A stretch of DNA of 58,175 nt from Candidatus Nealsonbacteria bacterium (GCA_030601865.1 JAUWAW010000003.1:1-58175), one strand, 5' to 3'. Positions 8,635-37,216 are shown, counted from the stretch's first letter. Notes: generated by a model from the letters alone, not told the origin. Numbers and translations are program-made.

Positions 8635-10011
8635 ATGAAGACAGTTTTCCTCAAATCATTATCAGATGTTGCAGGGCTGAAAAAGCTTGTTCAAAGGCCG
8701 GCGGTTCGGCTTGAGACACTGTTTCCAAAAGTGCGAAAAATTTTATTGGACGTGAAAAAGCGCGGCGATGCGGCGGTCAGAGAGTACACCAAAAAATTTG
8801 ACAGAGTAGATTTGGATAACTTCCAAAAAACTAAAACCGTTTCAACTTGGGCCGATCGGCCCAAGTTGAAACAGACTCAGGGATTGGAAAAGGTGTTAAG
8901 AATAGCAGCGGAGAATATAGAAAAGTTTCATAGAAGTCAATTACTAAAAGAAAAGCCAGTTGAAACGGTCAAGGGTATAAAATGCTGGCGGGAATGGCGG
9001 GCAATTGAAAAAGTTGGCTTATACGTACCCAAAGGATTAGTTTCAACTGTTCTAATGTTAGGCATACCAGCTAGAATTGCTGGATGTAAAGAGATTATTA
9101 TGTGTACGTCTCCAGATTCACCCCCACACCAAAGGGGGGCTAACTTTGTCAATTCAGACGCCAAAGGCACCTTGCCCCCCTTATGGTGTGGGGGCAAGCA
9201 AGGCAGGATTGCCCAAGAGATGCTTTTGGCAGCCGAGATTGCGGGTATCACAAAGGTTTTCAAAATTGGAGGCGCCCAGGCAATTGCTGCCATGGCCTAT
9301 GGCACAGAAACCGTGCCAAAAGTTGATAAAATATTTGGCCCAGGTAATCAATATGTCATGGCTGCCAAGATGTTGGTTTCCATTGACCCGGAAGGCGCAG
9401 CCATTGACTTGCCTGCTGGTCCTTCAGAAGTATTGGTTATTGCTGATAGCCAAGCCAATCCCAGTTTTGTGGCTGCTGATTTGCTCTCGCAGGCAGAACA
9501 TGGAGCCGATTCCCAGGTTGTTTTAACAACCAATGCTCAGGATTTAGTCCGTAAAGTAAAAAGCGCCTTGAAACGTCAACTCCTTGACTTGCCAGCAACA
9601 AGAAGAAAACTTGCTGAAAGCACTTTGGAAAACAGCCGTTGTATTATTACAAAAACCATAGATAAAGCCATTGCCTTTGCCAATCATTACGCGCCAGAAC
9701 ATCTTATTCTAAATCTAAAAAACCCTGAAAAATATATTTCTCAAATAAAAAACGCCGGCTCTGTTTTTGTCGGCGAATACACCCCGGAGTCAGTTGGCGA
9801 TTATGCTTCGGGCACTAATCATGTTCTACCCACTTCCGGCTATGCCAGAAGTTATAGCGGGGTTTCAATAGATGGTTTCATTAAAAAAATAACTTTTCAG
9901 AAAATTACTAAAACCGGACTTCAAAACATTGCCCCAACAGTAAAGGCCTTAGCCGACATTGAACAAATGCCGGCCCATAAAAACGCTGTTGTCGTTAGAA
10001 CTATCAAGTAA
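8635..10011 (+). CDS. hisD: histidinol dehydrogenase carrying two in-frame palindromic insertions
   Basis: GGAQAIAAMAYGTETVPKVDKIFGPGN, SQAEHGADSQ, GDYASGTNHVLPT are canonical HisD motifs. There are extra segments relative to the E. coli HisD sequence I recall. Confidence 0.9.
   Translation: MKTVFLKSLSDVAGLKKLVQRPAVRLETLFPKVRKILLDVKKRGDAAVREYTKKFDRVDLDNFQKTKTVSTWADRPKLKQTQGLEKVLRIAAENIEKFHRSQLLKEKPVETVKGIKCWREWRAIEKVGLYVPKGLVSTVLMLGIPARIAGCKEIIMCTSPDSPPHQRGANFVNSDAKGTLPPLWCGGKQGRIAQEMLLAAEIAGITKVFKIGGAQAIAAMAYGTETVPKVDKIFGPGNQYVMAAKMLVSIDPEGAAIDLPAGPSEVLVIADSQANPSFVAADLLSQAEHGADSQVVLTTNAQDLVRKVKSALKRQLLDLPATRRKLAESTLENSRCIITKTIDKAIAFANHYAPEHLILNLKNPEKYISQIKNAGSVFVGEYTPESVGDYASGTNHVLPTSGYARSYSGVSIDGFIKKITFQKITKTGLQNIAPTVKALADIEQMPAHKNAVVVRTIK
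8839..8872. repeat. perfect 34-bp palindrome in-frame in hisD
   Basis: gtttcaacttgggccga|tcggcccaagttgaaac. It encodes VSTWADRPKLKQ. Confidence 0.9.
9121..9194. repeat. inverted-repeat element in-frame in hisD (CCCCCACACC family)
   Basis: Arms cccccacaccaaagggggg (9121-9139) and ccccccttatggtgtggggg (9175-9194). It encodes about 27 extra aa between AGCKEIIMCTSPD and IAQEMLLAAE. Confidence 0.85.
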
Positions 10012-10214
10012 CTGCTAAGTTTGCCTCTTTTTGTTTTTTGCCCTGTGGCAGGAAGATTGTGCCTTCATATAACCCTAGAACAGGGCTGGCCCTCTGAGCT
10101 GTTAGAGTTTATTGCCACTCGTCTCAAGGGAGTCCCCATGGATATAGAGGTAATAGGAAAGATTGATCTGGAAAGGTGAGGCTAGGTCAATAAAAAATAA
10201 GGCGGTATAGCCAA

Positions 10215-10263
10215 GGAGCAGCAATTGACAGGAGGGATATAATTGTTGCTCCAATATTTTTTT
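10215..10263 (+). terminator. intrinsic terminator candidate
   Basis: ggagcagcaatt...aattgttgctcc (12-bp stem, one G-U pair) followed by aatattttttt. Confidence 0.45.
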
Positions 10264-10301
10264 ACATTTGACAGATTTTTTAAAAAAGGTAAATTAGAAT
10301 A

Positions 10302-11201
10302 ATGAGTAATAATCAAAAAATTAAGGACTTGCTGATGGAGTATTTAACTGAAACTACTCAGGAAGTTAGAAAAATAGCGGCCCGAGGTGAGGGCAGGGAG
10401 ATTTTGGGTGACGTTATCAACAGGCCCGAGGATCTTGAGATTGGCATTGATCAGGTGGGTGAGGAAGTTTTAAGAAAACTTTTAAAAAAACATGATGTGA
10501 AAGCAACTGTTTTCTCAGAGCCGGAAAAAAGAGAAATTAAAAATGGTGAACATGGAAAACCAGAGTTTTACGGCTCCATTGATCCTTTTGACGGGTCAAT
10601 GCTTTATCTGCGTGGATTTGAGCATAATTGGTATAGTGTTTTGAGTTTCTTTGATAAACAAAGAAATCCAATTTGCACTGGGGTTTCAGATATTTTAAAT
10701 GAAAAATTTTATCTCTCAGACGAAGAGGGAAACTATTTACTGGATACGAAAAGTGGTAAGAAAAAGCAAATTTTCCCTTCCCGAAGAAAGACATTGACCG
10801 AACCACTAGTGCTGGCAAGTTATGTGATGAGTTCTCAATATTCCTCAAAATTCTTAAATATCTTTGAGGATTTAATGAAGAATATGCACTCCAAGGCCCT
10901 GCTTTATCCCCAGGGCGGTTCGTTTATTTATGCTTATTTGGCTTCGGGCCTGGTTGATGCCTATGTTATGTTTGATGAACCGCGGTCGGAGATAGACCCG
11001 GGTTTTGCCATTGCCAAAAGGGTTGGCTGCCCCATAGTTAGCGTTAATTCAGATGGCAGTTGTGAGGATTATGAGTTTGTGCCCCGCAAACAGCACGACA
11101 AAGTAGGCCTGCTTATCGCTGCGGTCACGCCTGAGCTTAGAGATGCACTAATAAATTATTATGTCAAGAAATATGTCCAAAAATACTCTTTTGGAACTTA
11201 A
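10302..11201 (+). CDS. inositol monophosphatase/FBPase-family phosphatase
   Basis: 299 aa. SIDPFDGS matches the DPxDG(S/T) metal-binding motif, and the overall layout is IMPase-like. Confidence 0.6.
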   Translation: MSNNQKIKDLLMEYLTETTQEVRKIAARGEGREILGDVINRPEDLEIGIDQVGEEVLRKLLKKHDVKATVFSEPEKREIKNGEHGKPEFYGSIDPFDGSMLYLRGFEHNWYSVLSFFDKQRNPICTGVSDILNEKFYLSDEEGNYLLDTKSGKKKQIFPSRRKTLTEPLVLASYVMSSQYSSKFLNIFEDLMKNMHSKALLYPQGGSFIYAYLASGLVDAYVMFDEPRSEIDPGFAIAKRVGCPIVSVNSDGSCEDYEFVPRKQHDKVGLLIAAVTPELRDALINYYVKKYVQKYSFGT

Positions 11202-12102
11202 ACCAATTCAAAAGTTTATTGATGGAGTAGGCCAGGATATAAAGAAATATTTTGGCAAGGATAAGGGATGCATCATCGGAGTTGAAGATGATGGTGTTTT
11301 TTATGGAAAAGGGCTTTATCAGTGGTTCAGCCAAAAAAATAAAGATATAAACTTTACCACTATGGATGATTATGGAAAGGGATTAGAGAAAGATAAGGTT
11401 AAAGGTAGGAAGGTCTTGTTGGTGGATAATGATATTATTACGGGCAAGGCCTATAGAGTGGCTATGAATTCTGTGATGAGGAGGAGAGAGGAATTGAAAA
11501 TAAAAGATATAAAGTTTGCTGTCTTGTGTGATAGAGTGAAAGTAGCCGATTTCTCAGTTGAAGATTATCCCATGCCTTCTTCGTGGAATCTTAAAGATTT
11601 GGATGTAGTGGACCTGGAAATAATAAAAAGTTTATCTCAAGATGGCCGGAAGACGTTTGTGGAGATTGCTAAAGAAACTGGGCTGACGCCAGTGGGTATT
11701 AAAAAGAGAGTGGAAAGATTGATGGAAAAAGAGATATTGAAGATTCAGGCCGCTCTCAATACTGAGAAATTCTATTCTGTTTCAGCTACGGTGGGCGTTG
11801 AGGCCGACCCAAAGACCATTTCCAAATTAATAAAACAATTTGCCAATTGCCCTTTGGTTTATAACTTGGTTAAAGTTTCTGGACATCATAATTTAATCAT
11901 TGATATTATAGCTCCCAATTCAAAGAGAATAAATGACCTGATTGAAAAACAAATCAGGTCAAACACGAAAATAAGGTATTTAGAAGTTGATTTGGGAGAA
12001 TTACCCATTATACCTAAAACCCACTCTTTACTAACTTTTGTTGACAAATCTAAGAAATGTCCCTGCCAGACCAAGTGTAACGAATGTGAGTATTTTTTGT
12101 AA
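11161..12102 (+). CDS. fusion protein: phosphoribosyltransferase-like N-domain, Lrp/AsnC HTH plus ligand domain, Cys-rich tail
   Basis: KVLLVDNDIITGKA (PRT loop), DLEIIKSLSQDGRKTFVEIAKETGLTPVGIKKRVERL (AsnC-type HTH), C-terminal CPCQTKCNEC. The true start is probably a few codons inside the 41-nt overlap. Confidence 0.6.
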   Translation: MSRNMSKNTLLELKPIQKFIDGVGQDIKKYFGKDKGCIIGVEDDGVFYGKGLYQWFSQKNKDINFTTMDDYGKGLEKDKVKGRKVLLVDNDIITGKAYRVAMNSVMRRREELKIKDIKFAVLCDRVKVADFSVEDYPMPSSWNLKDLDVVDLEIIKSLSQDGRKTFVEIAKETGLTPVGIKKRVERLMEKEILKIQAALNTEKFYSVSATVGVEADPKTISKLIKQFANCPLVYNLVKVSGHHNLIIDIIAPNSKRINDLIEKQIRSNTKIRYLEVDLGELPIIPKTHSLLTFVDKSKKCPCQTKCNECEYFL

Positions 12103-12170
12103 AAACCTGCCTCGCTAACGCTCCGCTAGAACCTTGATTCGCTAAGGTATAAATATATAACCTTGAATTA
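12103..12170 (+). repeat. R1 element, copy 3
   Basis: aaaacctgcctcgctaacgctccgctagaaccttgattcgctaaggtataaatatataaccttgaatta. Confidence 0.9.
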
Positions 12171-12222
12171 AGCTCTTTAAAAAAGTGGTGGGGGGTGTGG
12201 AAAACTCCCTAAAATCACCTCC

Positions 12223-12250
12223 TTGACAAACTGTCTTGATATTCTAAAAT
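12223..12250 (+). promoter_or_regulatory. sigma70-like promoter candidate for greA
   Basis: TTGACA (12223-12228), 16-nt spacer, TAAAAT (12245-12250). Confidence 0.4.
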
Positions 12251-12355
12251 AGAATCATTGTTTATGGAAATGTCAGAAAACAAACCAAAAAGGTCAATTT
12301 ACTATATTTTATTAACTATTTTCAGTAATTCCCTTTAGAAAACAAAAGAAATATT

Positions 12356-13909: not shown

Positions 13910-14751
13910 TGAAAGTAGCAATTGGTATTATTGGCGGGTCAGGATTTTATGAGTTTTTGGCCGGCGGCGAGGAAATTTCTGTGGAGACGCCTTATGGCAA
14001 GCCCTCGGATAAGATTTTAATTGCTGAATATCAGGGTCAAAAAATTGCCTTTTTAGCGCGGCATGGGAAAAAACACCAATATCCGCCGCATAAAATAAAT
14101 TACCGGGCAAATTTATCTGCTTTTAAGAAATTGGGAGTTAAAAGAATTATTGCTCCCTGCGCTGTTGGTTCCTTGAAAGCAGAAATCAAGCCCGGCGATT
14201 TTGTTATTTGCGACCAATTTATTGATAGGACAAAAAACAGAAAAGACACTTTTTTTGACGGGCCTGCCCGCATTGCTACGCAAAACGTTGCAGGCGGGCC
14301 TAAAGTTGCTCACATATCAATGGTAGAGCCATACTGTCCAGAGTTGAGAAAATTAGCGATGAAGACCTGCCAGAAATTAGGAATTTCTTGCCATCAAAAA
14401 GGCACAGTTGTGATTATTGAAGGCCCTCGTTTTTCCACTAAAGCAGAGTCAAATTTTTATGCCAAAATTGGGGACGTGATAAATATGACCCAATACCCAG
14501 AAGTTAGTTTGGCCCGAGAACTTGAAATGTGCTATTTGAATATCTCTCTGGTCACCGACTACGACACCGGTCTAAAAGATGTCGGGGCTAACATCCTTGA
14601 CAGCATTAAACCGGTGACGGCGCAGGAAGTGCTCAAAACCTTCCAACAAAACACTGAAATTCTCAAAAAACTAATTTTAGAAATTATCAAAAAACTGCCC
14701 GAAACCAGAACCTGCCCCTGCAGCCAAGCATTAAAAAACGCATTTTTGTAA
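13909..14751 (+). CDS. mtnP: S-methyl-5'-thioadenosine phosphorylase
   Basis: IGIIGGSG, FLARHG..H..PPHKINYRAN, GPRFST.AES, INMT, LVTDYD motifs. Confidence 0.85.
   Translation: MKVAIGIIGGSGFYEFLAGGEEISVETPYGKPSDKILIAEYQGQKIAFLARHGKKHQYPPHKINYRANLSAFKKLGVKRIIAPCAVGSLKAEIKPGDFVICDQFIDRTKNRKDTFFDGPARIATQNVAGGPKVAHISMVEPYCPELRKLAMKTCQKLGISCHQKGTVVIIEGPRFSTKAESNFYAKIGDVINMTQYPEVSLARELEMCYLNISLVTDYDTGLKDVGANILDSIKPVTAQEVLKTFQQNTEILKKLILEIIKKLPETRTCPCSQALKNAFL
14261..14300. repeat. imperfect hairpin in-frame in mtnP
   Basis: ggcctgcccgca...tgcaggcgggcc (12-bp stem, one wobble, one mismatch). It encodes PARIATQNVAGGP in a loop that is shorter in the MTAP sequences I recall. Confidence 0.5.
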
Positions 14752-14767
14752 TTTTTGTAATTATTAT

Positions 14768-14806
14768 CTGACATCGAATGTTGACATCGGATGTCAACAG
14801 ACATCT
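14768..14806. repeat. REP2 palindrome cluster (intergenic)
   Basis: ctgacatcgaatgttgacatcggatgtcaacagacatc. Core is TGTTGACATCGGATGTCAACA. Confidence 0.9.
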
Positions 14807-17993: not shown

Positions 17994-18006
17994 ATATTCT
18001 CCCTTA

Positions 18007-18037
18007 CCAAAAAATCGCCTTTCAGGCGATTTTTTGG
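18007..18037. terminator. intrinsic terminator after clpB
   Basis: ccaaaaaatcgcc-tttca-ggcgattttttgg, a perfect 13-bp stem with A/T tracts on both sides. Confidence 0.75.
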
Positions 18038-18052
18038 TAGAATAAAATTAAG

Positions 18053-18836: not shown

Positions 18837-18859
18837 TGTCCGAGAAGCCATCTCGGACA
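18837..18859. repeat. REP1 palindrome, upstream copy
   Basis: tgtccgagaagccatctcggaca (9-bp stem, 5-nt loop), 7 nt before ATG 18866. Confidence 0.9.
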
Positions 18860-18865
18860 GCTTTT

Positions 18866-19594
18866 ATGCCTATAAAACGCCCACAATTTGCTGACGGGGA
18901 AATTTACCATGTTATACTCAGAGGTATTGCCGGCCAGAAAACTTTTTTAGAAAAAAGGGATTATTTGAGATATCTTTTTAGTTTACACATATTTAATAAT
19001 AAAGGGAGGGTTATTAAGCCCTTTAGGCCTGTCCGAGATGGCTTCTCGGACAGATTATTAATTAGGGGGCCGGATTTGGAAAAGCCGAGAGAGTTATTGA
19101 TTGAGATTTTAGGGCTTTGTTTAATGCCCAATCATATTCATTTACTGGTTCGGCAGGTTGTTGAAAATGGTATTTCTTTGTTTTTTCAGAAAATGGGTGG
19201 TTATTCCAGTTATTTCAACAAAAAATATGAGCGGTTTGGCTCCTTGTTTCAGCGGCCGTTTAAGGCAGTGCTTATTAAAACTGACGACCAATTGCTCATT
19301 GCTATTACCTATATCCATATGAATCCAATTGATTTAATTGAGCCCAATTGGAAAATTAGAGGCATTGCCAATCCTCAAAAAGTTATGGAATTTTTAGAAT
19401 CGTATCTTTGGTCAAGCTATCCTTATTATTTGGGAAAAGAGAACTTTTCCTGGTTAATTGATTCTTTATTTTTAAAGAAAATTTTGAAGAGTCCTGAGGA
19501 TTTCCGAAATTTTGTTAAAGCGCGAGTTCTCTATAAGGCAAGATTAAATGACTTTTTAGGTGCGTTACAAGATTTTTCTTTGACTTTAGAATAA
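18866..19594 (+). CDS. REP-associated tyrosine transposase-like protein (IS200-like Y1/HUH family), RAYT1
   Basis: GEIYHVILRG, LMPNHIHLLV (HUH), GSLFQRPFK, TYIHMNPI (catalytic Tyr region). ATG 18866 is preferred over the TTG at 18836, which lies inside REP1. Confidence 0.8.
   Translation: MPIKRPQFADGEIYHVILRGIAGQKTFLEKRDYLRYLFSLHIFNNKGRVIKPFRPVRDGFSDRLLIRGPDLEKPRELLIEILGLCLMPNHIHLLVRQVVENGISLFFQKMGGYSSYFNKKYERFGSLFQRPFKAVLIKTDDQLLIAITYIHMNPIDLIEPNWKIRGIANPQKVMEFLESYLWSSYPYYLGKENFSWLIDSLFLKKILKSPEDFRNFVKARVLYKARLNDFLGALQDFSLTLE
19030..19052. repeat. REP1 palindrome, internal in-frame copy (inverted loop)
   Basis: tgtccgagatggcttctcggaca, which encodes PVRDGFSDR inside RAYT1. Confidence 0.9.
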
Positions 19595-19613: not shown

Positions 19614-19636
19614 TGTCCAAGATGGCTTCTCGGACA
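19614..19636. repeat. REP1 palindrome, downstream copy (one stem mismatch)
   Basis: tgtccaagatggcttctcggaca, preceded by the partial copy tgttcgaga. Confidence 0.85.
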
Positions 19637-20285: not shown

Positions 20286-20364
20286 TGTTTAATCCTTCGG
20301 ATTAAACATGCTATTTTCGGCTTCAATATGCAATTTTCACGTGTTTAATCCGAAGGATTAAACA
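20286..20364. repeat. REPIN-like doublet: two 23-bp hairpins in inverted orientation
   Basis: tgtttaatccttcggattaaaca (20286-20308) and tgtttaatccgaaggattaaaca (20342-20364), separated by a 33-nt spacer. Confidence 0.9.
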
Positions 20365-20377: not shown

Positions 20378-23300
20378 ATGAAGAGAGCGTTTTTATATTT
20401 TTTTGGGCTAATTTTTTTAGTGGTGTTTTTGTTTTTTCCTCAAAATAGTCAAGGTCAGGAACTTGAGCTTGCCAAAGACGATACTCTTGATTTATTGAAA
20501 GCCACTCAGCAGGTTTTAATAGACAAGTGGCTTGATTTAACTACCTCAGGCAGCTTTGATGAGCCGGAAGAGCAGGCCGCCTTATTTTTGATTCGCAATG
20601 CCATTCAAAAGAGGCAATTTTCGTATTTTGTCAAGGAACTACCCAAGGAATATCTCAAGGCCCTGCTTAAAACAGCTGGTTCTTTGCTCTTTGCAGAAAA
20701 GGCCATTACTTTTATTTTAGGCGAAATTGAGAAAAAAAGCGTTAAAGAAGCGGTTGGTCTGACTACTGACTGGCTGCTGGCAAATGAAATTAGGATAGGA
20801 CAGGGCAAATTGTCCTATCCTTTTGAGTCCTACAAAGGAAATTGGCAAGAACCACCTCTTCATTATTTGATTGTTTATCAAGAAGTTGGGGCAGACCCCG
20901 TTAGAGGTTTAGGGGTCGAAGAAAAAGCACAAAACGCACAAACCTCTAACGGGGCGGGAACTTGGGCAGAGGTGGCTATTGAGTTTTATTCGCCAGAACT
21001 AATGGAACCCCCGGAACCCACCGGTGCAAGTATTTTGGGCATAAGAAGGGTTCCTTGGGAATTTGCTGAGTGGAGGGCGGCGGGCAATGAGGTCTTGTTG
21101 CCTTTTATTGTCAGGATTAAGGGAAGGGTATTGAAAGACGAGGCAATAGGCTATCAATGGCAGGAAAACAGGGTGGAAATTAGTTTTTCTGAGCCAGTAC
21201 CTTATTTTCCAGAGGAAAAAGACACATGGATTAGCAAAATTCCCTTTTTGGGCAGTTTTTATCGGAATTTCAAGCAAAGGTTGGTAGAACTAAAGAAGAT
21301 TATGGAAAAGCTGGGGCGGCTGGGTCGCTGGGGAACAGGTTCAGTGGTTGTTCCTGAAATGGAGCCGGGAGAACAGGATTTGGCAGTTTTGGACATGGAA
21401 AAGGTAAAGGAAGTGCCTGAGGAAGAGACGGCCCCGACGGTGTTGTTGGGGCCGGAAGCGGAAGGTACTGGCGGACCCCTGCCCAGAGAGGAAATTTTAG
21501 CCCGAATTCAGGAAGAACTGGATGACATTGCCGAAGGGATTGATATCATTAACCAGGAGGTTAGGGAGTTAACTGCAGAAGAAGATGTCGGGGATGTTAG
21601 CCTCGACAGTGTTAGCCCCGACGGTTCATCTGTCTCTATTTCTGAAGAGCTGGAGGAATTTGTTGAGCAGCCTTTAGAGGAGGTAGGACCCGCCTTCGCT
21701 CCTGACGAGTCCGCCGAAGCTTTAGCGGAGGAGGAAGGAGCTACGGCGGGCAAGCAGGAGTTTTGCCAGAAAATACCTGGGGCTCAGGCAATAAGGAATA
21801 AGGTCATACTCAATGAAATTGCCTGGATGGGCACTGAGGAAAGTTATAGTAATGAGTGGATTGAGCTTAAAAATATTTCTGGGGAGACAGTTGATTTAAC
21901 TGGTTGGCAGCTCTTTAATAAGGAGCAGAAAATAAAAATAATTTTTAGTCGAGATAACTTCTTGACTGGAGGGTTTTGGCTTTTAGAGAGAACTGATGAT
22001 GAAACAGTGCCGGGCAAGGCGGCTGATTTGATTTATACTGGCGCGCTTAAAAATAGGGAGGAGGTCCTCTATTTATTTGACTCGGCTTGCCATCTGCAAG
22101 ATAAGGTAGGGGCCTTGCCTGATTGGCCGGCTGGTGATAACAGTTCCAAGAGGACCATGGAGCGGAGGACTGATTTGACTTGGCAGACCAGCGCTGAGAT
22201 TGGGGGCACGCCCAAAGCAGAAAATAGTTCGGGTTATGTTGCTGGGGGTGGTGGTGGTGGCGCGCCCCCGCCAGCAGAGCCAGAGCCGCCAGAAGAAGAA
22301 CCAGAAGAAGAGCCAGAAGAACCCCAACCGGTGCCTGAAATTCTCATTACCGAGGTCCAAATTAGAGACGCCTTCTCTTCTGACCACGATTTCATTGAGC
22401 TTTACAACCTTGCCACCACTACCGTAGACATTTCGGGGCTCCAATTGAAAAAGAAGAGTTCTACTGGCGAAGAATGTTCTGTTCGGGTTTTCCCGAGCGG
22501 GAGCCAAATTCTTTCCCAAAGCTATTTTCTCTGGGCCAATTCTGCCTACGTCTCCTCCAGCCAAATTTCAGCTGATTTAGTGAACACTACCTCAAGTCAG
22601 ACCTTAGCCAAAAACAACAGCCTGGCCTTATTGAATCAAGACAAAAGTATTATTGATGCAGTAGCCTGGGGCAGCAGCACAGACCCTTTCTTAGAAGGTC
22701 TTCCCTTTTCCCAAAATCCCGAACACACTCAAACCTTAGGCCGAAAATGGTCAACCTCTACCCAGACCTATATTGACACTGATAATAATGCTGAGGATTT
22801 TGAACTGCAAGAACCCACGCCTGGTGCTGAAAATAAGCCGAAAACAGAGGGCGGCGGCTCTGGCGGCGAGGAGGAGGGCGAAGACGAGGAGCCAGAGCCG
22901 CCAGAGCCGCCGCCAGAAAACCAGGCACCCACAGCCCTTTTCACCTTTTCCCCGCAAAACCCATTCGTGGGGCAAGAAACTTTCTTCAATGCTGCTTCTT
23001 CTACTGACCCGGACGGCCAAATTACCGCTTATTTTTGGGATTTTGGCGATAACGCTACCACCACCACGTCCCAGGCCACAACCACTCATTCTTTTGCTAG
23101 CTCAACCCCCTATCTTATTAGCCTTAAAGTTATTGATGATGATGGCGCTTTCAGCACGCCGGCTACCACCACCATAACCGTGAGCGGCGACTCTGGCGGC
23201 GAGGAAGAGGGCGAAGACGAGGAGCCAGAGCCGCCAGAGCCGCCGCCAGAAACCCCCACCCTCTCAGTCGTCATCAACGAAATCGCCTGGATGGGCACCA

Positions 23301-25048: not shown

Positions 25049-25654
25049 ATGGACAAAAACTATCTCATCCAATTAACCAATAAACTTTATCGCTTGACCC
25101 TGCTTTTTCCCAAAAAAGAGCCCTTGCGCTACAAAATGCGCGAAATAGCCAACGAAATTTTAGCCGACATTGTAGCCGAGAAGGAGAATCTCCACCGTGG
25201 TAAAAAACCCACGATCGTAGGAATTTTACCACGGCTGGAAACTTTAGACAGTTTTTTTGAGGTGGCCAAGGCGCAGAACTGGGTCAAGGCAGAGGAAATC
25301 TTGAATCTTCAGCAGGAATATAGTAAGGTAAAACAAGAATATAGTAAGGGTAAAGAAAAGATTCACCTTGTTAGATCCCGCGAAAGGGAAATTCCGCCAG
25401 AACCAACAAGTAGTCTGTTGACATCGGATGTCAACAGAGATGTCAACAGACAACCACAGGCCAGCCTGAACGATCGCCACCGAACAATCCTTGACTTCTT
25501 AAAAGAAAACGGCCAGGCCCAGGTAGGACATTTGACAAAGGTTCTTTCCCAAGTAACCAAAAGAACCCTGAGAAGGGATTTTAAAGATTTATTAAACCAG
25601 GGCCTGATTGAGAGGATGGGCGATAAGAATGAAACCTATTACCGGTTAAAATGA
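25049..25654 (+). CDS. four-helix-bundle (23S rRNA IVS-protein-like) N-domain plus winged-HTH C-domain protein
   Basis: KLYRLT..FPKKEP.RYKMRE.ANEIL pattern. C-terminal RHRTILDFLKENGQAQVGHLTKVL..TKRTLRRDFKDL is a DeoR-like wHTH. The gene carries three repeat insertions. Confidence 0.55.
   Translation: MDKNYLIQLTNKLYRLTLLFPKKEPLRYKMREIANEILADIVAEKENLHRGKKPTIVGILPRLETLDSFFEVAKAQNWVKAEEILNLQQEYSKVKQEYSKGKEKIHLVRSREREIPPEPTSSLLTSDVNRDVNRQPQASLNDRHRTILDFLKENGQAQVGHLTKVLSQVTKRTLRRDFKDLLNQGLIERMGDKNETYYRLK
25195..25234. repeat. P2 palindromic element, in-frame
   Basis: ccgtggtaaaaaacccacgatcgtaggaattttaccacgg, which encodes RGKKPTIVGILPR. Confidence 0.85.
25415..25450. repeat. REP2 palindrome plus half-copy, in-frame
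   Basis: ctgttgacatcggatgtcaacag agatgtcaacagac, which encodes LLTSDVNRDVNR. Confidence 0.9.
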
Positions 25655-26160
25655 GAAATCCTAGGAAAAAATTTGCCAAAATTTACGATAAATATATTGA
25701 AAAAATATATCGTTTTATTTTTTTAAAGGTTAATTCCCCAGAAATAGCTGAGGATTTGTCTTCCGAGACCTTTTTGAGGGGGTGGAAAGCCTTTCAAAAC
25801 CCAAAAAAAATTAAAAATCCTCAGGCCTTTTTGTATAAAATTGCCAGAAACTTAGTTATTGACCATTACCGGGAAAAAGGCAAGGCCCAGATTATTTCAG
25901 CTGAATATGCTTCTATTATTGACCCATGCCAAGATTTAGCCGAAAAAGCTATGTTGACATCGGATGTCAACAGCATTAGACAGGCCTTGGTCAACGTAAA
26001 ACCCGATTACCAAGATATCATCATCTGGCGCTATTTAGATGAGATGTCTATTTCAGAAATAGCCCAAGCTTTAGATAGGACAGACGGCGCAACCCGTGTC
26101 CTACTTCATCGGGCAATGAAAGCCTTACGGACAACAATGGCAGGAGGTGAAGAAAATTGA
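25651..26160 (+). CDS. ECF-type sigma-70 family RNA polymerase sigma factor
   Basis: Region 2 (IYRFIFLKV....AEDL..ETFLR.W, FLYKIARNLVIDHYR) and region 4 (DIIIWRYLDEMSISEIAQALDRTDGATRVLLHRAMKALR). Confidence 0.85.
   Translation: MRNPRKKFAKIYDKYIEKIYRFIFLKVNSPEIAEDLSSETFLRGWKAFQNPKKIKNPQAFLYKIARNLVIDHYREKGKAQIISAEYASIIDPCQDLAEKAMLTSDVNSIRQALVNVKPDYQDIIIWRYLDEMSISEIAQALDRTDGATRVLLHRAMKALRTTMAGGEEN
25952..25973. repeat. REP2 palindrome in-frame in the sigma2-sigma4 linker
   Basis: tgttgacatcggatgtcaacag, which encodes MLTSDVNS. Confidence 0.9.
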
Positions 26161-26391: not shown

Positions 26392-26414
26392 CTGTTGACA
26401 TCGGATGTCAACAG
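26392..26414. repeat. REP2 palindrome, upstream of RAYT2
   Basis: ctgttgacatcggatgtcaacag. Confidence 0.95.
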
Positions 26415-26450: not shown

Positions 26451-27185
26451 ATGTATCGAGAATTTGCCATAGGAGAATATTATCATGTGTATAACCGCGG
26501 CAATCGCAAGGAGATAATATTCTATAACGAAAAAGATATGTGGCGTTTTTTACAAACTCTCCGTTTTTTTAATGACACGCGTTCTTCTCTTAATGTCCTC
26601 CGTCAACTGTTGACATCCGATGTCAACAGACCTGTCCATAGGACAAGTTCGGTATTTGAGTTGGGCTGGCCGCCTAAGTGGCCAGAACAAGAGCCCTTGG
26701 TCATAATTTTGTGCTATTGTTTAGTTCCCAACCATTTCCATTTGTTATTAAAAGAAATTCGGGAAGGAGGCATCTCCAAATTTATGCAAAAAATTGGTAT
26801 TGGTTTTTCAAAATATTCCAATATAAAATATGACAATGTGGGCAGCCTTTTCCAAGGACCTTATCAAGTCAAATTAATCGAAGAGCAGAGATATTTAGAA
26901 TATTTAATGGTCTATATCCAAGTCATCAATGTCTTAGAGTTATTCCCCGGAGGCCTTGAGGCAGCCCTAAAAGACCCTAAAAAAGGCATGGTTTTTGTGG
27001 ATAATTATATTTTCTCCAGCCACCCTGATTATGCTGGGTTGCGAAACTCTCTAATTGTTGGCAAAGACATTTTAGGGAAAATATTCCTCACCTCAGCCCA
27101 TTACAATCAATTCGTCCGCCAAACCCTCTTAGGTAAAAGAACCCAAGACATCACCCAATTTTTAGGTGATTTAACCTTAGAATAG
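26451..27185 (+). CDS. RAYT-like IS200-family Y1/HUH protein, RAYT2 (divergent Tyr motif)
   Basis: GEYYHVYNRG, LVPNHFHLLL (HUH), GSLFQGPY, VYIQVINV (Tyr kept, H.NP lost). It ends in LTLE like RAYT1. Confidence 0.7.
   Translation: MYREFAIGEYYHVYNRGNRKEIIFYNEKDMWRFLQTLRFFNDTRSSLNVLRQLLTSDVNRPVHRTSSVFELGWPPKWPEQEPLVIILCYCLVPNHFHLLLKEIREGGISKFMQKIGIGFSKYSNIKYDNVGSLFQGPYQVKLIEEQRYLEYLMVYIQVINVLELFPGGLEAALKDPKKGMVFVDNYIFSSHPDYAGLRNSLIVGKDILGKIFLTSAHYNQFVRQTLLGKRTQDITQFLGDLTLE
26607..26629. repeat. REP2 palindrome, internal in-frame copy in RAYT2
   Basis: ctgttgacatccgatgtcaacag encodes QLLTSDVNR. It is followed at 26633-26645 by the REP1-like mini-hairpin tgtccataggaca. Confidence 0.9.
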
Positions 27186-27219
27186 CTGTTGACATCGGAT
27201 GTCAACATCGGATGTTGAC
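27186..27219. repeat. REP2 palindrome plus overlapping second copy, immediately after the RAYT2 stop
   Basis: ctgttgacatcggatgtcaacatcggatgttgac. Confidence 0.9.
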
Positions 27220-27307
27220 CGGTTTAGGAAAAGTGTAACGCAAGGGCGGTTTCTGCGTCATAATAATATAAGGGGTATCTCATAGCCGATTATGGTGACC
27301 CGATACT

Positions 27308-28057
27308 ATGACCGAAAAAGAGGTGATTACTAAAATTCAAGAGCTAAAGCAAATTACACCCAGAGAGGACTGGGTTGTTTTGACTAAGAACCAGATTTTA
27401 ATCCAGGAAATGGGTCGTGATAAAAAACCTACGATCGTAGGTTTTTTATCACGGTTTAATTTTCGCTGGGTTTTGCTTCCGGCTTTTTCTTTTTGTCTAA
27501 TTTTAGGCATTTTTGCCCTGTCGCAAAGTTCTTTGCCCGGCGACTCGCTTTATCCCCTTAAAAAAATGACTGAAAAAAGCCGGGTCCTTTTTATTTCCCA
27601 GGAACAAAAACCAAAACTCAATCTGGAACTGGCCAATAAGCGACTGCAAGATTTGACCAAGATTGTCCAGAATAATGATGTCAAAAAGCTGGCCCCAGCC
27701 ATTAAGGAATTTCAGGCCAATATTTCTGAGGCAGTCAAAAATTTGAGCAAAATAAAGGCCACTAGCTCTGACCCGGTTATGATTAAGAAAATTGTGGAAG
27801 AGACCAAAAAATTGGAGGAAAATAAACAAAAAGTAGAGGCCTTGGGCGTGAAGGTGGGCGATACTGAAGAATTAGACAATGCCTTATCTCAGTGGAGGGC
27901 TCGCCTGGTGGAAAGCGAAATTAAAGAAATGGAAGGTAAAGAACTATCTGAAAATCAGCAGCAAATTTTGGCTGAAATAAAACAAGATTTTGAGAATGGA
28001 GATTATTCTTCTGCTTTGGAAAAGATTTTATTATTGAGTTATCCACAGGACAAATAA
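27308..28057 (+). CDS. putative anti-sigma factor (single TM, DUF5667-like extracytoplasmic helical domain)
   Basis: Short cytoplasmic N-terminus, a TM helix (WVLLPAFSFCLILGIFAL), then PGDSLYPLKK..E and a long helical K/E-rich domain. The context is downstream of the ECF sigma. Confidence 0.5.
   Translation: MTEKEVITKIQELKQITPREDWVVLTKNQILIQEMGRDKKPTIVGFLSRFNFRWVLLPAFSFCLILGIFALSQSSLPGDSLYPLKKMTEKSRVLFISQEQKPKLNLELANKRLQDLTKIVQNNDVKKLAPAIKEFQANISEAVKNLSKIKATSSDPVMIKKIVEETKKLEENKQKVEALGVKVGDTEELDNALSQWRARLVESEIKEMEGKELSENQQQILAEIKQDFENGDYSSALEKILLLSYPQDK
27416..27453. repeat. P2 palindromic element, perfect 38-bp palindrome, in-frame
   Basis: cgtgataaaaaacctacga|tcgtaggttttttatcacg, which encodes RDKKPTIVGFLSR. 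Confidence 0.95.
28037..28048 (+). promoter_or_regulatory. AGTTATCCACAG motif
   Basis: Exact 12-mer in the last codons of 27308..28057, upstream of TATAAT (28069-28074) and R1 copy 4. Confidence 0.45.
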
Positions 28058-28071
28058 GCACAATTAGGTAT

Positions 28072-28143
28072 AATAAGAACATGCCTCGCTAACGCTCGGC
28101 ATAACCTTGATTCGCTAAGGTATAAATATATATTCTTGAATTA
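28072..28143 (+). repeat. R1 element, copy 4
   Basis: aataagaacatgcctcgctaacgctcggcataaccttgattcgctaaggtataaatatatattcttgaatta, ending directly at ATG 28144 of a 29-codon uORF. Confidence 0.9.
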
Positions 28144-28241
28144 ATGGAAAGTCGCGATTCTCGTGGCCCTTACGTAAGGTCGCGAACACAAGGTCGACGC
28201 GACGAAAAAAATAATAACACAATTAAAGATTGATTAATTAC

Positions 28242-32840: not shown

Positions 32841-32880
32841 AAAACCCCCTCACTCTATTAGAGTGAGGGGGTTTTGTTTT
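32841..32880 (+). terminator. intrinsic terminator
   Basis: aaaaccccctcactc-tatta-gagtgagggggtttt followed by gtttt. Confidence 0.8.
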
Positions 32881-33997: not shown

Positions 33998-34023
33998 CCC
34001 TTATCACCCTTATCAACCCTTAT
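33997..34023 (+). repeat. three phased ACCCTTAT repeats overlapping the start of 34022..35800
   Basis: Copies at 33997, 34006 and 34016. The last one contains ATG 34022. Confidence 0.85.
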
Positions 34024-35800
34024 GAAAACCAAAACAAACATTATTCTCATGCTAGCCTTGTTCCTGGCACTTCCTTTGGTAGTCAGTGCCGATTACGGTG
34101 GCCAGCAAACCTCTTTTTTTGTTGACTCTGATTACGATTTATTGGGCAGAGAAAAGTTGACCGCCACCCTTATCAGGATCAGTCCCCATCTTTATTTTTA
34201 CCTTGATAATAACTGGTGGTCAGCGGTCAGCGCAGCCAAGCAAAGCGAAATTAAAACAGCCCTTCAGAATTTAGAAGAGGAATTTGAGAAAACAATTTAT
34301 CCAATTTTAACCGCAGCTTTTGGAACAGAATGGAGACCAGGCATTGATAAAGACGTCCACCTAATCATTTTAATTCATCCCATTGAGGAACAGGCCGGCG
34401 GCTATATCAGCACTGGAGATGAGTATTCTAAATTGCAGGTGCCCAATTCCAATCAGAGAGAAATGATTTATCTCAATTCAAAATACATTACCTCTCCTTT
34501 GGCCAAATCTTTTTTAGCCCATGAATTCACCCATTTAATTACTTTCAATCAAAAAGAAGTAAAAAGAGGAGTAACCGAAGAAATTTGGCTCAATGAGGGA
34601 AGAGCCGAATATGCCCCCACTTTGCTGGGATACGACAGTCCTTATATTGGCAGCAATCTGCAAACAAGAGTGAGAGATTTTTTACAAAATCCGCAGGACT
34701 CTTTAACTGAATGGAGAAATGACAAAGCCGACTACGGGGTCTTAAATCTATTTATCCAGTATTTAGTTGATTACTACGGAATTGAAATCTTAGTTGATTC
34801 TCTTCATTCAAAAAAGATAGGCATTCCCTCTCTTAATGAGGCCTTAGCCAAAAATGGCTATGACCAGGACTTTTCCCAAATTTTCACTGACTGGACCATA
34901 GCTGTCCTCTTAAATGATTGTTCTATTAAACACCCGATGTTAAGCGAGCAAAGCGAGACAACATCGGGTGTTGAATCTCCTTATTGCTACCTAAACCCAA
35001 ATTTAAAAAATGTGCGGGTTTCCCCTTCACTTAATTTTTTGCCTTTTGTCAAAAAGACGACTCTGGCAGTAACGGCCACCAGCAAAAATTGGGCCGCTAA
35101 TTGGTACAAATTTATTGGGGGCCAAGGCGATTTAAAACTGGAGTTTATTGGCTATCCTGATATTACTTTCAAAATCCCCTATTTGACCCAGGACTTAGCC
35201 GGAGAATATTCTCTTGACTTTTTTGAACTTGATGAACATCAACAGGGTCAGATTCTGATTCCTGATTTTGGGCAAAAGATTACTTCTTTGGTCATTATTC
35301 CCTCAATTCAGAGTAAAATGTCTGGCTTTGATGCTGATGAGGACTCTTATTCTTTTTTTTGGTCTGTCTCCAGCGAGGAGGAATCAAATACCCCACCTAA
35401 TGAAGAAGAAGAACCAGCTGAAGACATCCAGTCCCTCCTTGAAAAGATTAGTTTCTTAGAAAAACAATTGACTCTTTTAAGAGCCCAACTCAAAACCCAG
35501 CTGGCCCCCACACCTCTGGAGGTGTGGGGGCTGGCCGGACCCCAGGCCTTAGAATACAATTTGCAGTATGAGGATAGGGGAGAGGAAATCAAACTTTTAC
35601 AGACCTGGTTGGCTAAAGACCCCTTTGTTTATCCTGAGGGCTTGGTCACCGGCTATTTTGGCCCCCTGACCAAGGCAGCTGTCATCCGTTTTCAAGAAAG
35701 ATTTCCCGAGGAAGTGCTCAGCCCCTGGGGCCTGACCCAGGGCACTGGCTTTGTCGGCCCCACCACCCGCACCAAACTGAATGAATTATATACTTCTTAA
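34022..35800 (+). CDS. secreted HEXXH zinc-metallopeptidase-like protein with coiled coil and C-terminal peptidoglycan-binding domain
   Basis: Signal peptide, LAHEFTHLI plus downstream NEGRAEY (gluzincin pattern), C-terminal GYFGPLTKAAVIRFQE..GTGFVGPTTRTKLN nearly matching the PG-binding module of 28242..32798. Confidence 0.6.
   Translation: MKTKTNIILMLALFLALPLVVSADYGGQQTSFFVDSDYDLLGREKLTATLIRISPHLYFYLDNNWWSAVSAAKQSEIKTALQNLEEEFEKTIYPILTAAFGTEWRPGIDKDVHLIILIHPIEEQAGGYISTGDEYSKLQVPNSNQREMIYLNSKYITSPLAKSFLAHEFTHLITFNQKEVKRGVTEEIWLNEGRAEYAPTLLGYDSPYIGSNLQTRVRDFLQNPQDSLTEWRNDKADYGVLNLFIQYLVDYYGIEILVDSLHSKKIGIPSLNEALAKNGYDQDFSQIFTDWTIAVLLNDCSIKHPMLSEQSETTSGVESPYCYLNPNLKNVRVSPSLNFLPFVKKTTLAVTATSKNWAANWYKFIGGQGDLKLEFIGYPDITFKIPYLTQDLAGEYSLDFFELDEHQQGQILIPDFGQKITSLVIIPSIQSKMSGFDADEDSYSFFWSVSSEEESNTPPNEEEEPAEDIQSLLEKISFLEKQLTLLRAQLKTQLAPTPLEVWGLAGPQALEYNLQYEDRGEEIKLLQTWLAKDPFVYPEGLVTGYFGPLTKAAVIRFQERFPEEVLSPWGLTQGTGFVGPTTRTKLNELYTS
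34929..34972. repeat. hairpin element in-frame in the metallopeptidase-like gene
   Basis: Perfect 13-bp arms aacacccgatgtt / aacatcgggtgtt, loop aagcgagcaaagcgagac. It encodes KHPMLSEQSETTSGV. Confidence 0.9.
35505..35530. repeat. 26-bp palindrome in-frame (CCCCCACACC family)
   Basis: cccccacacctc tg gaggtgtggggg, which encodes PTPLEVWG. Confidence 0.9.
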
Positions 35801-35841
35801 CCCTTAAATCACCCTTAATCTTACCCTTAACCTACCCTTAA
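35800..35841 (+). repeat. four phased ACCCTTAA repeats just after the stop of 34022..35800
   Basis: Copies at 35800, 35811, 35823 and 35834 (spacing 11-12 bp). Confidence 0.85.
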
Positions 35842-35871
35842 ACATCTTTTCAGTTTTTTTGATGCACATTT

Positions 35872-35905
35872 AGAGAACACTCAGATAGAGAGAACACTCA
35901 GATAG
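35872..35905 (+). repeat. perfect tandem duplication of a 17-mer
   Basis: agagaacactcagatag occurs twice in tandem. Confidence 0.95.
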
Positions 35906-35968
35906 CCCGATGAAATGTTACCACTTATCCTGCCATGGCAAGATAAGTAGGCACAATTTGAGAGGGGT

Positions 35969-37216
35969 TTAATCTCTCGGGTTAAACACTTTTTTAGTTG
36001 CTTCTACCATTTTTTGCAAGGTGAATTGTTGTTCCAGTTTTTTTCTGGCTAAACTAGCCATTTGCCGGGCTTTATCTGGATGTCCCAGGACAGAGGCAAT
36101 TTTTTCAGCCAATTTTGGGCTGTTTTTTACTTCCACCAAGAGACCTTCTTTGGTATTTTCAATTATTTCTGGCACTGCCCCCACTTTGGTGGCTACAATG
36201 GGCACCTCAGCGGCCATGGCCTCTAAAATAACCCAAGGGAACCCTTCTTTCAAAGAAGGCAAAACAAAAACATCAAAGGCCTTTAAGTATTTGTAGGCAT
36301 TTGGAATACGGCCAACTAAAAAAACCGTATTTTCAAGGTTATATTTTTTTATTAGTGATTCTAACTTTGTTCGCAAGCGCCCCTCCCCAATGATTATTAT
36401 CTTGAAACCTGAATTTAAAATATGAGTTGCCTCGATTAAATATTTTAGACCCTTAGTTCTATAAAAGTTAGCCACAGTACCCACAATTGGTGACATCCGA
36501 TGTTGACATCCGATGTTGACATCGGATGTCAACAGACTAAATAAGTACTCTCTGGCTTTTTCTTTTAGCAAGAACTGCAATTTATTCACGTCAACCCCAT
36601 TATAGATTTTGACAATTTCGGGCAATCTACTATTGTCATTCTGAGCCGAAGGCGAAGAATCTCGTTCTTCCACGGGACCCTTCACTTTGTTCAGGGCGGC
36701 ACCTTCGGTGCCGATTTTATATTTTATGGCTAATTGCCGGTCAATTTCGCAATTAACAATGATTTTATCCTTAAAGCGGGCAGTCCATTTCTCCAGCCAA
36801 ATAATAATTTTGTTTTGCCAAGCCGGCCTGGGGTCGCGAAAAGCCCAACCACCAATACGATAAATAACCCGGCTTTTTTTATAGAGACGACCGGCAATAG
36901 AGCCTAAAATGCCCGCCGTGGTTGAATTCAAAAACAAAACATCCGGCTTTTCTTTTTTCAATAATTTGTAAATCTCCCTTATGGAAAGAAAAACACTAAT
37001 CGGTCCTGGTATCCTTTTGAGATATTTTAAGTTTTGAGTTTTAAGTTGTGGTTTTGAGTTTTGCGTTTTGAGTTTTGCGCTTAATTCTCCGTCTTTTTCC
37101 CCAGCCGCCACCAAAACTTCATAGCCTTCATTGGCAAGATAAAGCGAGGTATCAAAAATATATCTCTGCGCCCCGCCAAATTCCGATTGGGTAACGATAA
37201 AAAGAATTTTTGTCAT
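35969..37216 (-). CDS. GT4-family glycosyltransferase interrupted in-frame by three repeat elements
   Basis: N-terminal FGGAQRY and C-terminal EGFPWVILEAMAAEVPIVAT.VGA.PEII (GT4 E-x7-E region). Extra segments lie at 36491-36535, 36633-36713 and 37031-37078. Confidence 0.75.
   Translation of the reverse strand: MTKILFIVTQSEFGGAQRYIFDTSLYLANEGYEVLVAAGEKDGELSAKLKTQNSKPQLKTQNLKYLKRIPGPISVFLSIREIYKLLKKEKPDVLFLNSTTAGILGSIAGRLYKKSRVIYRIGGWAFRDPRPAWQNKIIIWLEKWTARFKDKIIVNCEIDRQLAIKYKIGTEGAALNKVKGPVEERDSSPSAQNDNSRLPEIVKIYNGVDVNKLQFLLKEKAREYLFSLLTSDVNIGCQHRMSPIVGTVANFYRTKGLKYLIEATHILNSGFKIIIIGEGRLRTKLESLIKKYNLENTVFLVGRIPNAYKYLKAFDVFVLPSLKEGFPWVILEAMAAEVPIVATKVGAVPEIIENTKEGLLVEVKNSPKLAEKIASVLGHPDKARQMASLARKKLEQQFTLQKMVEATKKVFNPRD
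36491..36535. repeat. REP2 cluster (about 2.5 copies) in-frame in the glycosyltransferase
   Basis: tgacatccgatgttgacatccgatgttgacatcggatgtcaacag. The minus-strand frame reads LLTSDVNIGCQHRMSP. Confidence 0.9.
36633..36713. repeat. composite hairpin element in-frame in the glycosyltransferase
   Basis: gtcattctgagccgaaggcgaagaatctc ... cccttcactttgttcaggg, plus the perfect hairpin cggcacc-ttc-ggtgccg (36697-36713). Confidence 0.7.
37031..37078. repeat. three copies of gttttgagtttt(gc) in-frame in the glycosyltransferase
   Basis: Copies at 37031-37042, 37051-37064 and 37065-37078, which encode KTQNSKPQLKTQNLK. Confidence 0.9.

Follow-up and report, generated by a model that had tools for sequence, protein, structure and literature searches.

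We analysed a 58,175-nt stretch of DNA from Candidatus Nealsonbacteria bacterium (the window; about 91% coding, G+C 30-51%) and found that many of its protein-coding genes contain short palindromic segments, which leave the reading frame intact. Such palindromes were far more frequent in genes than expected by chance, they fell into repeat families, two of these families were linked to genes of REP-associated tyrosine transposases (RAYT; REP, repetitive extragenic palindrome), and comparison with orthologous genes identified a number of the segments as insertions. Similar in-gene palindromes were present in other genomes of the candidate phyla radiation (CPR). The segments are probably REP-type mobile elements, which were spread by RAYTs and survived in-frame within genes. 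We infer that RAYTs move the elements and that selection alone explains their frame and position. For comparison, 487 kb of other CPR loci (about 0.5 Mb) were used, which carry labels such as L001, L006 and L089. The main comparator was L089, which is syntenic with the window between 24 and 37 kb and encodes proteins that are 55-78% identical to those of the window.

Palindromes within protein-coding genes

A first-pass annotation of the window had proposed that at least 14 palindromic segments lie within open reading frames (ORFs) without breaking the frame. All listed segments (14/14) turned out to be palindromes or inverted repeats, each located in an open frame of an intact ORF. For hairpin counting, we considered perfect stems with a loop of up to 40 nt, and the chance level was derived from 30 versions of the window in which the codons of each gene had been permuted. 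In the window ORFs, we observed 26, 18, 11 and 11 stems of at least 10, 11, 12 and 13 bp, and the corresponding mean values for the codon-permuted versions were 3.2, 1.07, 0.3 and 0.07, no permuted version having more than one stem of 13 bp or longer. The enrichment of palindromy in coding DNA, which the annotation had presupposed, is confirmed by these counts. All strong in-gene hairpins were located within 1-37 kb of the window. When the whole window was considered, 18 of the 27 stems of at least 11 bp were found in ORFs, and 14 remained when the doubtful ends of a recombinase ORF (see below) were removed. Per kb, hairpins were several-fold denser in non-coding than in coding DNA, and this is expected if coding insertions are mostly purged.

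Clustering of the hairpins, which the annotation had suggested as a check, yielded the families REP-A, REP-B, C and D within the window. REP-A (CTGTTGACATCGGATGTCAACAG) was found at eight sites (14779, 25413, 25952, 26392, 26607, 27185-27223, 36483-36537 and, as a variant, 39010), REP-B (TGTCCGAGATGGCTTCTCGGACA) at three sites (18837, 19030, 19614), family C (CGTGATAAAAAACCTACGATCGTAGG...) at two sites (25195, 27416) and family D, which has the ends CCCCCACACC/GGTGTGGGGG, also at two sites (9121-9194, 35504-35531). In four ORFs, located on both strands, REP-A reads LLTSDVN, because either strand of a perfect palindrome specifies an identical peptide. The reading of family C is R(D/G)KKPTIVG(F/I)L(S/P)R in two ORFs. 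The ends of REP-A and REP-B are CTGT...ACAG. Family C has an internal CTAC...GTAG, and some related loci such as L061 have GTAG. Intergenic copies were also detected: REP-A with a partial tandem arm lies directly after the mtnP stop codon (14761-14802), and a REPIN-like doublet (20286-20364) consists of two TGTTTAATCC(TTCG)GGATTAAACA hairpins, which are inverted and 33 nt apart. The REP-A-like variant TATTGATATCGGATATCAATA (39010-39030) overlaps the stop codon of an epimerase gene, and its core TTGATATCGGATATCAA is common with the cognate REP (GGTTGATATCGGATATCAACC) of the RAYT in L092. When we searched for exact REP-A in one genome per species (185,579 species, GTDB representatives), matches were obtained only in Patescibacteria/CPR, namely in Saccharibacteria, two Nealsonbacteria and two unclassified genomes, and two of the matched genomes carried an in-frame copy. 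Neighbouring genes match a Nealsonbacteria contig at 53-69% identity, and going by best hits the window would be CPR and Parcubacteria-like.

The comparison loci contained 154 perfect hairpins whose stems measured 12 bp or more, and 40 of them were located well inside stop-to-stop ORFs of at least 150 aa, where about 2-3 are expected when the null model of the window is scaled up. One locus (L022) contained five copies of one REP inside long ORFs.

The elements of the window span 21-81 nt, and the clean inserts all have lengths that are multiples of 3 nt and are free of stop codons. For 17 elements, 66 of the 102 possible frames are open (35% closed), and all 17 are read in an open frame, for which the chance probability is about 2e-4. 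REP-A has a stop in one frame and the copy of family C in a DUF5667 anti-sigma candidate has stops in two. The host ORFs are full length and their catalytic or invariant residues are kept, as checked for HisD against orthologues. The open-frame bias and the full-length hosts argue, as indirect evidence, against pseudogenes and against removal of the inserts before translation, and the insert peptides are probably translated; LLTSDVNR, RDKKPTIVGFLSR and the HisD peptide PPHQRGANFVNSDAK might serve as insert-diagnostic peptides. Insertions in rRNA genes are well known in CPR bacteria, and on this precedent one might suppose that the inserts are removed like introns or inteins, or that the hosts are pseudogenes, so that the peptides never occur in working proteins. 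We regard this as very improbable, since the inserts are stop-free multiples of 3 nt in an open frame, the hosts are full length with their invariant residues, and inteins or group I/II introns are far longer than these elements. Even less credible is an origin of the palindromes as assembly artefacts of a metagenome-assembled contig. Assemblers can be confused by palindromes and repeats, but REP-A was found in-frame in the independent assemblies L004, L006 and L097, the inserts keep reading frames and orthologues in other assemblies have analogous hairpins. On the basis of the frame and stop statistics and of the independent assemblies, splicing, intein, pseudogene and assembly-artefact readings were rejected.

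If the segments are REP-type elements, short palindromes would fold as hairpins in single-stranded DNA and would be spread by RAYT transposases of the Y1/HUH type. Since the genome is about 91% coding, most landing sites would be genic. Selection would purge copies that shift the frame, bring in a stop codon or strike structured parts of a protein. Surviving copies would be those with a length that is a multiple of three and a stop-free frame in surface loops or linkers, and they would be translated as extra peptides. With time, a copy may decay, may be overwritten by another family at a permissive site or may persist. The RAYT genes hold their own REP as a resident copy, which occupies a loop located after the YHV..RG strand and before the HUH motif and changes together with the flanking ones.

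RAYT genes and their cognate repeats

The window encodes two Y1/HUH transposases of this type. RAYT1 (18866-19594, + strand) contains the motifs YHV..RG, PNHIHLL and YIHMNP and likely starts at ATG 18866, not at TTG 18836; mis-called N-termini are also a caveat for catalogued intragenic REPs (PMC3733652). RAYT2 (26451-27185, + strand) belongs to a large CPR family (1184 homologues). The Pfam profile Y1_Tnp matched RAYT1 with 28.3 bits and RAYT2 with 23.7 bits (cut-off 23), and the HUH motif PNH[IF]HLL and the catalytic Tyr of YI[HQ] were invariant in the RAYT alignment. The AlphaFold2 (AF2) model of RAYT2 was poor, with a predicted local distance difference test (pLDDT) value of 66.8 and the HUH strand mis-predicted as helix, and a Foldseek search against PDB returned noise only. 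Judging from their sequences, the two proteins are distant relatives and not canonical group 2 or 3 RAYTs.

Both genes are flanked on either side by one repeat, RAYT1 by REP-B and RAYT2 by REP-A. The REP-B copies lie 5' (18837-18859) and 3' (19614-19636) of RAYT1, and the loop of the former is inverted relative to the other two copies of this family. REP-A is located 5' of RAYT2 (26392-26414) and, with a tandem arm, at 27185-27223, where it overlaps the RAYT2 stop codon and then continues past it. REP-A is concentrated around RAYT2, with five of its eight sites no further away than about 1.3 kb, and the others include sites 11 kb away on either side; REP-B was found in the window only around RAYT1. 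For REPtrons that arrived recently, the same clustering of REPs near tnpA(REP) has been described (PMC8266576). In four syntenic loci (L089, L096, L091, L012), RAYT2 is absent between the sigma factor gene and the DUF5667 gene, and a 76% identical RAYT with the same REP-A is present in L097 in a different context, beside LacI and Mur ligase genes. From this distribution, the RAYT2 REPtron looks mobile as a unit.

The cognate REP is also present in-frame inside the two RAYT genes. REP-B inside RAYT1 (19030-19052, + strand) encodes PVRDGFSDR, and REP-A inside RAYT2 (26607-26629, + strand) encodes LLTSDVNR. The annotation had counted both segments among the inserted elements. Both copies do exist and keep the frame, but their location is a loop that is hypervariable throughout the family, and they add no length. 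In an alignment of 26 RAYT relatives, this loop is located between FFNDSHSS.NILR and SVFELGWP and encodes palindrome-type peptides (LTSDVN, LISDIN, VSDT, KPGF, APGA), and it was not clearly longer where an internal REP is present. The flanks share an 11-mer in 57 of the 66 CPR RAYT loci with usable flanks, although a few AT-rich 11-mers among them are probably spurious. In 19 of these 57 loci, the flanking 11-mer also occurs inside the RAYT ORF, always 38-51 residues after the YHV motif. Among the relatives in the subfamily of RAYT2, internal hairpin and flanking REP are identical in the window and in L092, L093, L095 and L097, and the REP sequence varies by locus; in L094 the internal hairpin is unlike the flanks and in L009 it is absent. 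The RAYT of L059, which is 38% identical to RAYT1, is located upstream of the same conserved gene as RAYT1; the REPs of the two differ, and either REP is present in a 5', an internal and a 3' copy at its own RAYT.

We take these data to mean that the three REP copies change in concert, perhaps by gene conversion or re-insertion, and not by repeated independent insertion. As far as the aligned sequences tell, the RAYT copies differ from ordinary invasions of host genes; a cognate REP, fixed in its position, recurs in this CPR RAYT family. A more far-reaching idea, which we put forward only tentatively and which may well be wrong, is that the RAYT has its own target hairpin built into its gene, where it is translated at a fixed loop and kept identical to the flanks while diverging between lineages. 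If true, this arrangement would constitute a three-REP 'REPtron', and the internal copy might be a master or donor copy, an autoregulatory site (DNA or mRNA) or a self-limiting cleavage site. A resident REP that changes with the flanks even at syntenic loci offers a handle on transposase-target co-evolution.

Insertion sites in the host proteins

When the host proteins were aligned with orthologues, eight sites were identified as in-frame insertions of 10-27 aa. The annotation had characterized the elements as extra loop or linker residues outside the conserved core, and this description holds for most sites. It fails for the sigma factor segment, which is conserved, and among the other sites three were undecidable (hisD 8839-8872, winged helix-turn-helix (wHTH) protein 25413-25451, peptidase-like protein 35504-35531), being variable linkers with gaps of 2-4 residues; the remaining ones are the RAYT loops.

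The hisD gene contains two elements. The first one (8839-8872, + strand) is a perfect 34-nt palindrome, which encodes VSTWADRPKLKQ in a variable region with a net gain of 4 aa relative to a 72% identical orthologue. The second one (9121-9194, + strand) belongs to family D and is a clean 78-nt (26-aa) insertion. It is missing in 14 of 14 aligned orthologues, and its borders were defined by codon alignment to L001. Close relatives of the window HisD are metagenomic only (best 72% identical), and enzymes of named organisms are about 52% identical. An AF2 model of HisD reached a mean pLDDT of 81, and values below 50 were given to residues 66-74, 76-80 and 164-188, which represent the two elements, and to residues 396-409. 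Placement on a predicted structure, which the annotation had recommended and which was carried out for HisD, thus located both elements in low-pLDDT coil, predicted to be disordered; the HisD core and its invariant residues are intact.

In mtnP, an imperfect hairpin (14261-14300, + strand) forms a 12-aa insertion, which is a gap in alignments to solved MTAPs (PDB 1v4n, 2a8y, 9vs8), and a second hairpin (14565-14616, + strand) coincides with a 10-aa gap in the PDB MTAP alignments. The giant LTD protein contains an element with a 15-bp stem and a 29-nt loop (20896-20954, + strand), which makes an insertion of about 22 aa and corresponds to a 22-residue gap in the L059 orthologue, although the latter is only 24% identical overall. 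In the linkers of this protein, a hairpin with an 18-bp stem (22850-22914, + strand), which encodes GGGSGGEEEGEDEEPEPPEPPP, and its second copy (23184-23246, + strand) are located on the two sides of a PKD domain. The second mtnP hairpin and the two LTD linker hairpins had not been listed in the annotation.

The remaining hosts include regulators, a peptidase-like protein and a glycosyltransferase. Site 1 of the wHTH protein (25195-25234, + strand; HRGKKPTIVGILPR) is a 10-aa insertion of family C, and its linker (25413-25451, + strand) carries REP-A with an extra arm (SLLTSDVNRDVNRQ). The DUF5667 anti-sigma candidate contains a perfect 38-nt palindrome of family C (27416-27453, + strand), which encodes RDKKPTIVGFLSR and adds 14 aa relative to L089; a decayed hairpin is present at this site in L012. 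The PG_binding/HExxH-like (peptidase-like) protein carries a 13-bp stem (34929-34972, + strand) as a clean 45-nt (15-aa) insertion, which is missing in L089 and in 15 representative homologues, and its linker contains a short form of family D (35504-35531, + strand; GCCCCCACACC TCTG GAGGTGTGGGGGC). Two elements are located in the GT4 glycosyltransferase (GT) gene. The first one is a tandem REP-A (36483-36537, - strand; SLLTSDVNIGCQHRMSPIV), which adds 12 aa relative to L065 and only 4 aa relative to L089. The second one (36633-36713, - strand) is a structured element of 81 nt with a predicted folding energy of -31 to -38 kcal/mol, which forms a 27-aa insertion with gaps in L089, L006 and L065. 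We presumed a resemblance of this element to the widespread 'AQNDN/SLRSE' repeats; a core-pattern search of the loci gave no other copy, and we make no claim on this point. The L006 GT4 orthologue has its own hairpins at other sites (4110-4151, 4491-4524), one of which is a clear 11-aa insertion and another a 6-aa insertion; an example is GAGGTCCGACCTC..GAGGTCGGACCTC, which encodes RGPTSRQICREVGPR. These separate insertions suggest that the same gene was hit independently in different lineages.

At several of these places, orthologous permissive loops host different hairpins in different genomes (wHTH, GT and anti-sigma sites). At wHTH site 1, L089 and L096 carry the different hairpin GCCAGAGAAC.GTTCTCTGGC and L091 a weak one. 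At the first GT site, L089 has its own 23-nt hairpin (CTATCGAAGAACGACATCGATAG), and the Nealsonbacteria orthologue in L006 has the same REP-A at the same place. Judging from these alignments, several insertions go back a long way and also occur in distant orthologues, or other hairpins took their place at the same site. At the GT site, covariation of the L089 hairpin with REP-A was also considered and discarded, since two changed pairs only are too weak a signal.

The ECF (extracytoplasmic function) sigma factor palindrome (25952-25972, + strand) is identical to REP-A and encodes MLTSDVN. The annotation had interpreted it as an insertion into a linker. However, the peptide aligns gap-free to 22 homologues with invariant residues L102 and S104, and the pattern LxS[DE].. 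is present in at least 106 of 120 sigma homologues, nearly all of which read LxSD[VILF][ND]. The gap-free alignment and the family-wide motif rule out a recent insertion, and this segment is ancestral conserved sequence. Such an alignment is what the annotation itself had named as refuting its claim, and the claim is refuted at this site. The L089 orthologue (5768) keeps the 5' half of the palindrome (TTG ACA TCG GAT ATT) and the L096 orthologue (about 2080) its 3' half (GCA TCA GAT GTC AAC). With three taxa only, either an ancestral perfect copy decayed in L089 and L096 or the window copy was perfected later. RAYT2, the transposase gene of this repeat, is located 290 nt downstream. The identity with REP-A may be a coincidence, may result from REP homing to a look-alike site or may reflect the origin of the REP.

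A number of observations weigh against the explanation by REP-type elements. REP-A and REP-B lack the 5' GTAG (or CGTC) tag of classical REPs, and families C and D have no transposase in the window. The NCBIfam model REP_Tyr_transpos (NF047646; cut-off 80) scored RAYT1 with 35.1 and RAYT2 with 18.6 bits, and profile and single-sequence searches of the RAYTs against PDB gave no match. To judge by its alignment, the sigma factor palindrome is native, which shows that the palindromes of the window are not insertions in every case. The elements at hisD 8839, mtnP, LTD, 34929 and GT 36633 are single-copy in the window and the comparison loci, and their repeat nature is assumed by analogy. Moreover, the finding of different hairpins at one orthologous site might indicate that a hairpin is selected and not just tolerated.

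The last point leads to a different explanation, according to which the hairpins are selected nucleic-acid structures, for instance for RNA processing or stability, as pause sites or as protein-binding sites, and the peptides are a by-product. It would account for the different hairpins at wHTH site 1, for the partly paired changes that separate REP-A from the L089 hairpin at the GT site, for the base-perfect REP-A at the same GT site in the window and L006 though the GT proteins are 53% identical, and for the conserved position of the internal RAYT REP while its sequence changes. On the other hand, close relatives are without many of the elements (anti-sigma, 34929 and GT 36633 in L089, hisD in L001), the host genes are mutually unrelated, and an Rfam scan of the window at gathering thresholds returned two tRNAs only, with no family matching the hairpins. 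Recurrence at the same site may reflect selection of hairpins, but it is also expected from few tolerant loops or from REPs that target existing hairpins. Taken together, we consider selected structures an unlikely explanation.

The single-copy elements could alternatively have arisen in place within fast-evolving loops, by template switching (quasi-palindrome correction) or small inverted duplications. No second copy of hisD 8839-8872, mtnP 14261-14300, LTD 20896-20954 or 34929-34972, nor of GT 36633, was found in the window or in the approximately 0.5 Mb of related loci, and the sigma factor palindrome with its halves in L089 and L096 demonstrates that native sequence can be or become a perfect palindrome. 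However, the sharp borders of the clean 30-81 nt insertions relative to close orthologues speak for insertion more than for local remodelling, repetition is demonstrable for families A to D, and with only 58 kb of the genome single copies are expected for families with few members. We therefore judge an origin in place to be improbable and retain REP-type mobile elements as the preferred explanation.

Other features of the window and comparison with known systems

The genes of the window encode ClpP, NusA, GreA, ClpB, HisD, MTAP, the ECF sigma factor and its DUF5667 partner and giant LTD/PKD surface proteins; a polysaccharide gene cluster of low G+C is also present. Three long perfect hairpins with T-runs, which follow ClpB (18005-18039), the gene of a 1522-aa protein (32841-32875) and a 575-aa ORF (45946-45992), look like ordinary intrinsic terminators and are not countable as REPs. 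A large serine recombinase with Resolvase, Recombinase, Zn ribbon and SHOCT domains (147-1823) is bracketed by inverted copies (179-224 and 1727-1772) of the hairpin GCCCGCTAAATTT(8 nt)AAATTTAGCGGGC and adjoins two tRNA-Ser genes (1787-1870 and 1882-1971). Its listed ORF crosses both hairpins and reaches into the tRNA, so that its true ends are doubtful. This region has the look of a small element that integrated at a tRNA gene. Between genes, a repeat of about 85 nt (AGAACCTGCCTCGCTAACGCTCG..AGAACCTTGATTCGTTAAGGTATAAATATATAG) was found at 5789-5873, 5857-5941, 12087-12171 and 28060-28144, directly upstream of three genes, whose products are a conserved protein of 164 aa, GreA and the 1522-aa protein. 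The repeat was without match in the Rfam scan and could be a shared promoter or leader.

In the polysaccharide/glycosyltransferase cluster (37000-58175), G+C is 30-38% vs 38-51% elsewhere and strong hairpins are nearly absent; recent acquisition or different constraints may be the reason. The region 6476-12102 contains histidine-pathway genes (class I/II aminotransferase, HisD, inositol-monophosphatase-family protein), and in the related locus L001 an IGPD gene adjoins hisD. Such genes are unusual for a CPR genome, as CPR bacteria are generally without amino-acid biosynthesis. Two ORFs look truncated. The best stretch of a 330-aa ORF (3551-4543) matches only positions 21-95 of a 645-position profile of H+-translocating pyrophosphatase (H+-PPase), and a 277-aa UDP-glucose dehydrogenase-like ORF (37282-38115) matches only positions 72-181 of a 187-position NAD-binding profile.

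CPR (Patescibacteria) genomes are tiny, with a high coding density, and are usually described as poor in mobile DNA. In this lineage, housekeeping enzymes (HisD, MTAP), regulators and proteins of the cell surface appear to carry insertions that REP/RAYT systems left behind and that are putatively translated. For aligning, modelling and annotating CPR proteins this would mean that extra loops are repeats and not lineage-specific domains. The elements may also serve as a marker for strain-level dynamics and as natural maps of insertion-tolerant loops, and REP turnover in permissive loops could regularly generate protein-length variation in CPR genomes.

The elements resemble REPs and REPtrons (PMC3733652, PMC8266576, PMC3116915) in that palindromes of about 20-40 nt form families, a Y1/HUH gene is flanked by its cognate REP, copies cluster near this gene and some of them lie in ORFs, where they decorate proteins with 7-30 residues, often in loops or linkers. 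Unlike classical REPs, which are mainly extragenic, most copies in the window are intragenic. They also differ from classical REPtrons by the CPR lineage, the missing 5' GTAG, RAYTs of about 240 aa that score below the NCBIfam cut-off, the apparent mobility as a unit and the cognate REP at a fixed position inside the RAYT ORF.

The annotation had compared the elements with Rickettsia palindromic elements (RPEs). The likeness extends to in-frame insertion into genes, but the elements here are probably REP-type, tied to RAYTs, and not RPEs. As far as RPEs are portrayed in a review (Ogata et al. 2000 via PMC10969869), both occur in-frame in housekeeping genes that have no relation to one another, in a small genome and at places that the fold and the function of the protein allow. 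By description, RPEs measure about 150 bp and have a conserved peptide (PMC10969869), whereas the elements here span 21-81 nt and form several families. Furthermore, at least two families here are paired with a RAYT. We know of no dedicated transposase for RPEs. With in-frame MITEs (miniature transposable elements with inverted repeats), such as intragenic ERIC and Anabaena MITEs (PMC10969869), the elements share that they are small, non-autonomous and form translational fusions in ORFs. MITEs have terminal inverted repeats derived from insertion sequences (IS) and a target-site duplication. Here, only the family D element in hisD (9121-9194), with 19-nt inverted ends, is similar, and codon alignment revealed no target-site duplication at its borders; the other elements are simple hairpins. 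IS200/IS605 elements employ an HUH/Y1 enzyme that recognizes subterminal DNA hairpins, which is a plausible model for the action of RAYT1 and RAYT2 on REPs. In contrast to IS200/IS605, there is no TnpB and there are no defined IS ends, and the hairpins are dispersed alone without the gene.

The annotation had credited in-frame invasion of genes to Rickettsia, whose RPEs are its classic example (PMC10969869). Intragenic in-frame REPs have, however, already been catalogued in several other phyla, for instance in Opitutus terrae, Thauera, Xanthomonas and others, and also in Rickettsia conorii, where RPE-4 and RPE-6 are such intragenic REPs (Di Nocera et al. 2013, PMC3733652). Our literature searches retrieved no description of REP/RAYT systems or in-frame palindromes in CPR, and neither such a density in coding DNA nor a RAYT with its cognate REP in its own frame was found described. 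Thus, intragenic REPs as such are known from other phyla, and what appears to be new is their occurrence in CPR at high coding density and the in-frame cognate REP in RAYTs.

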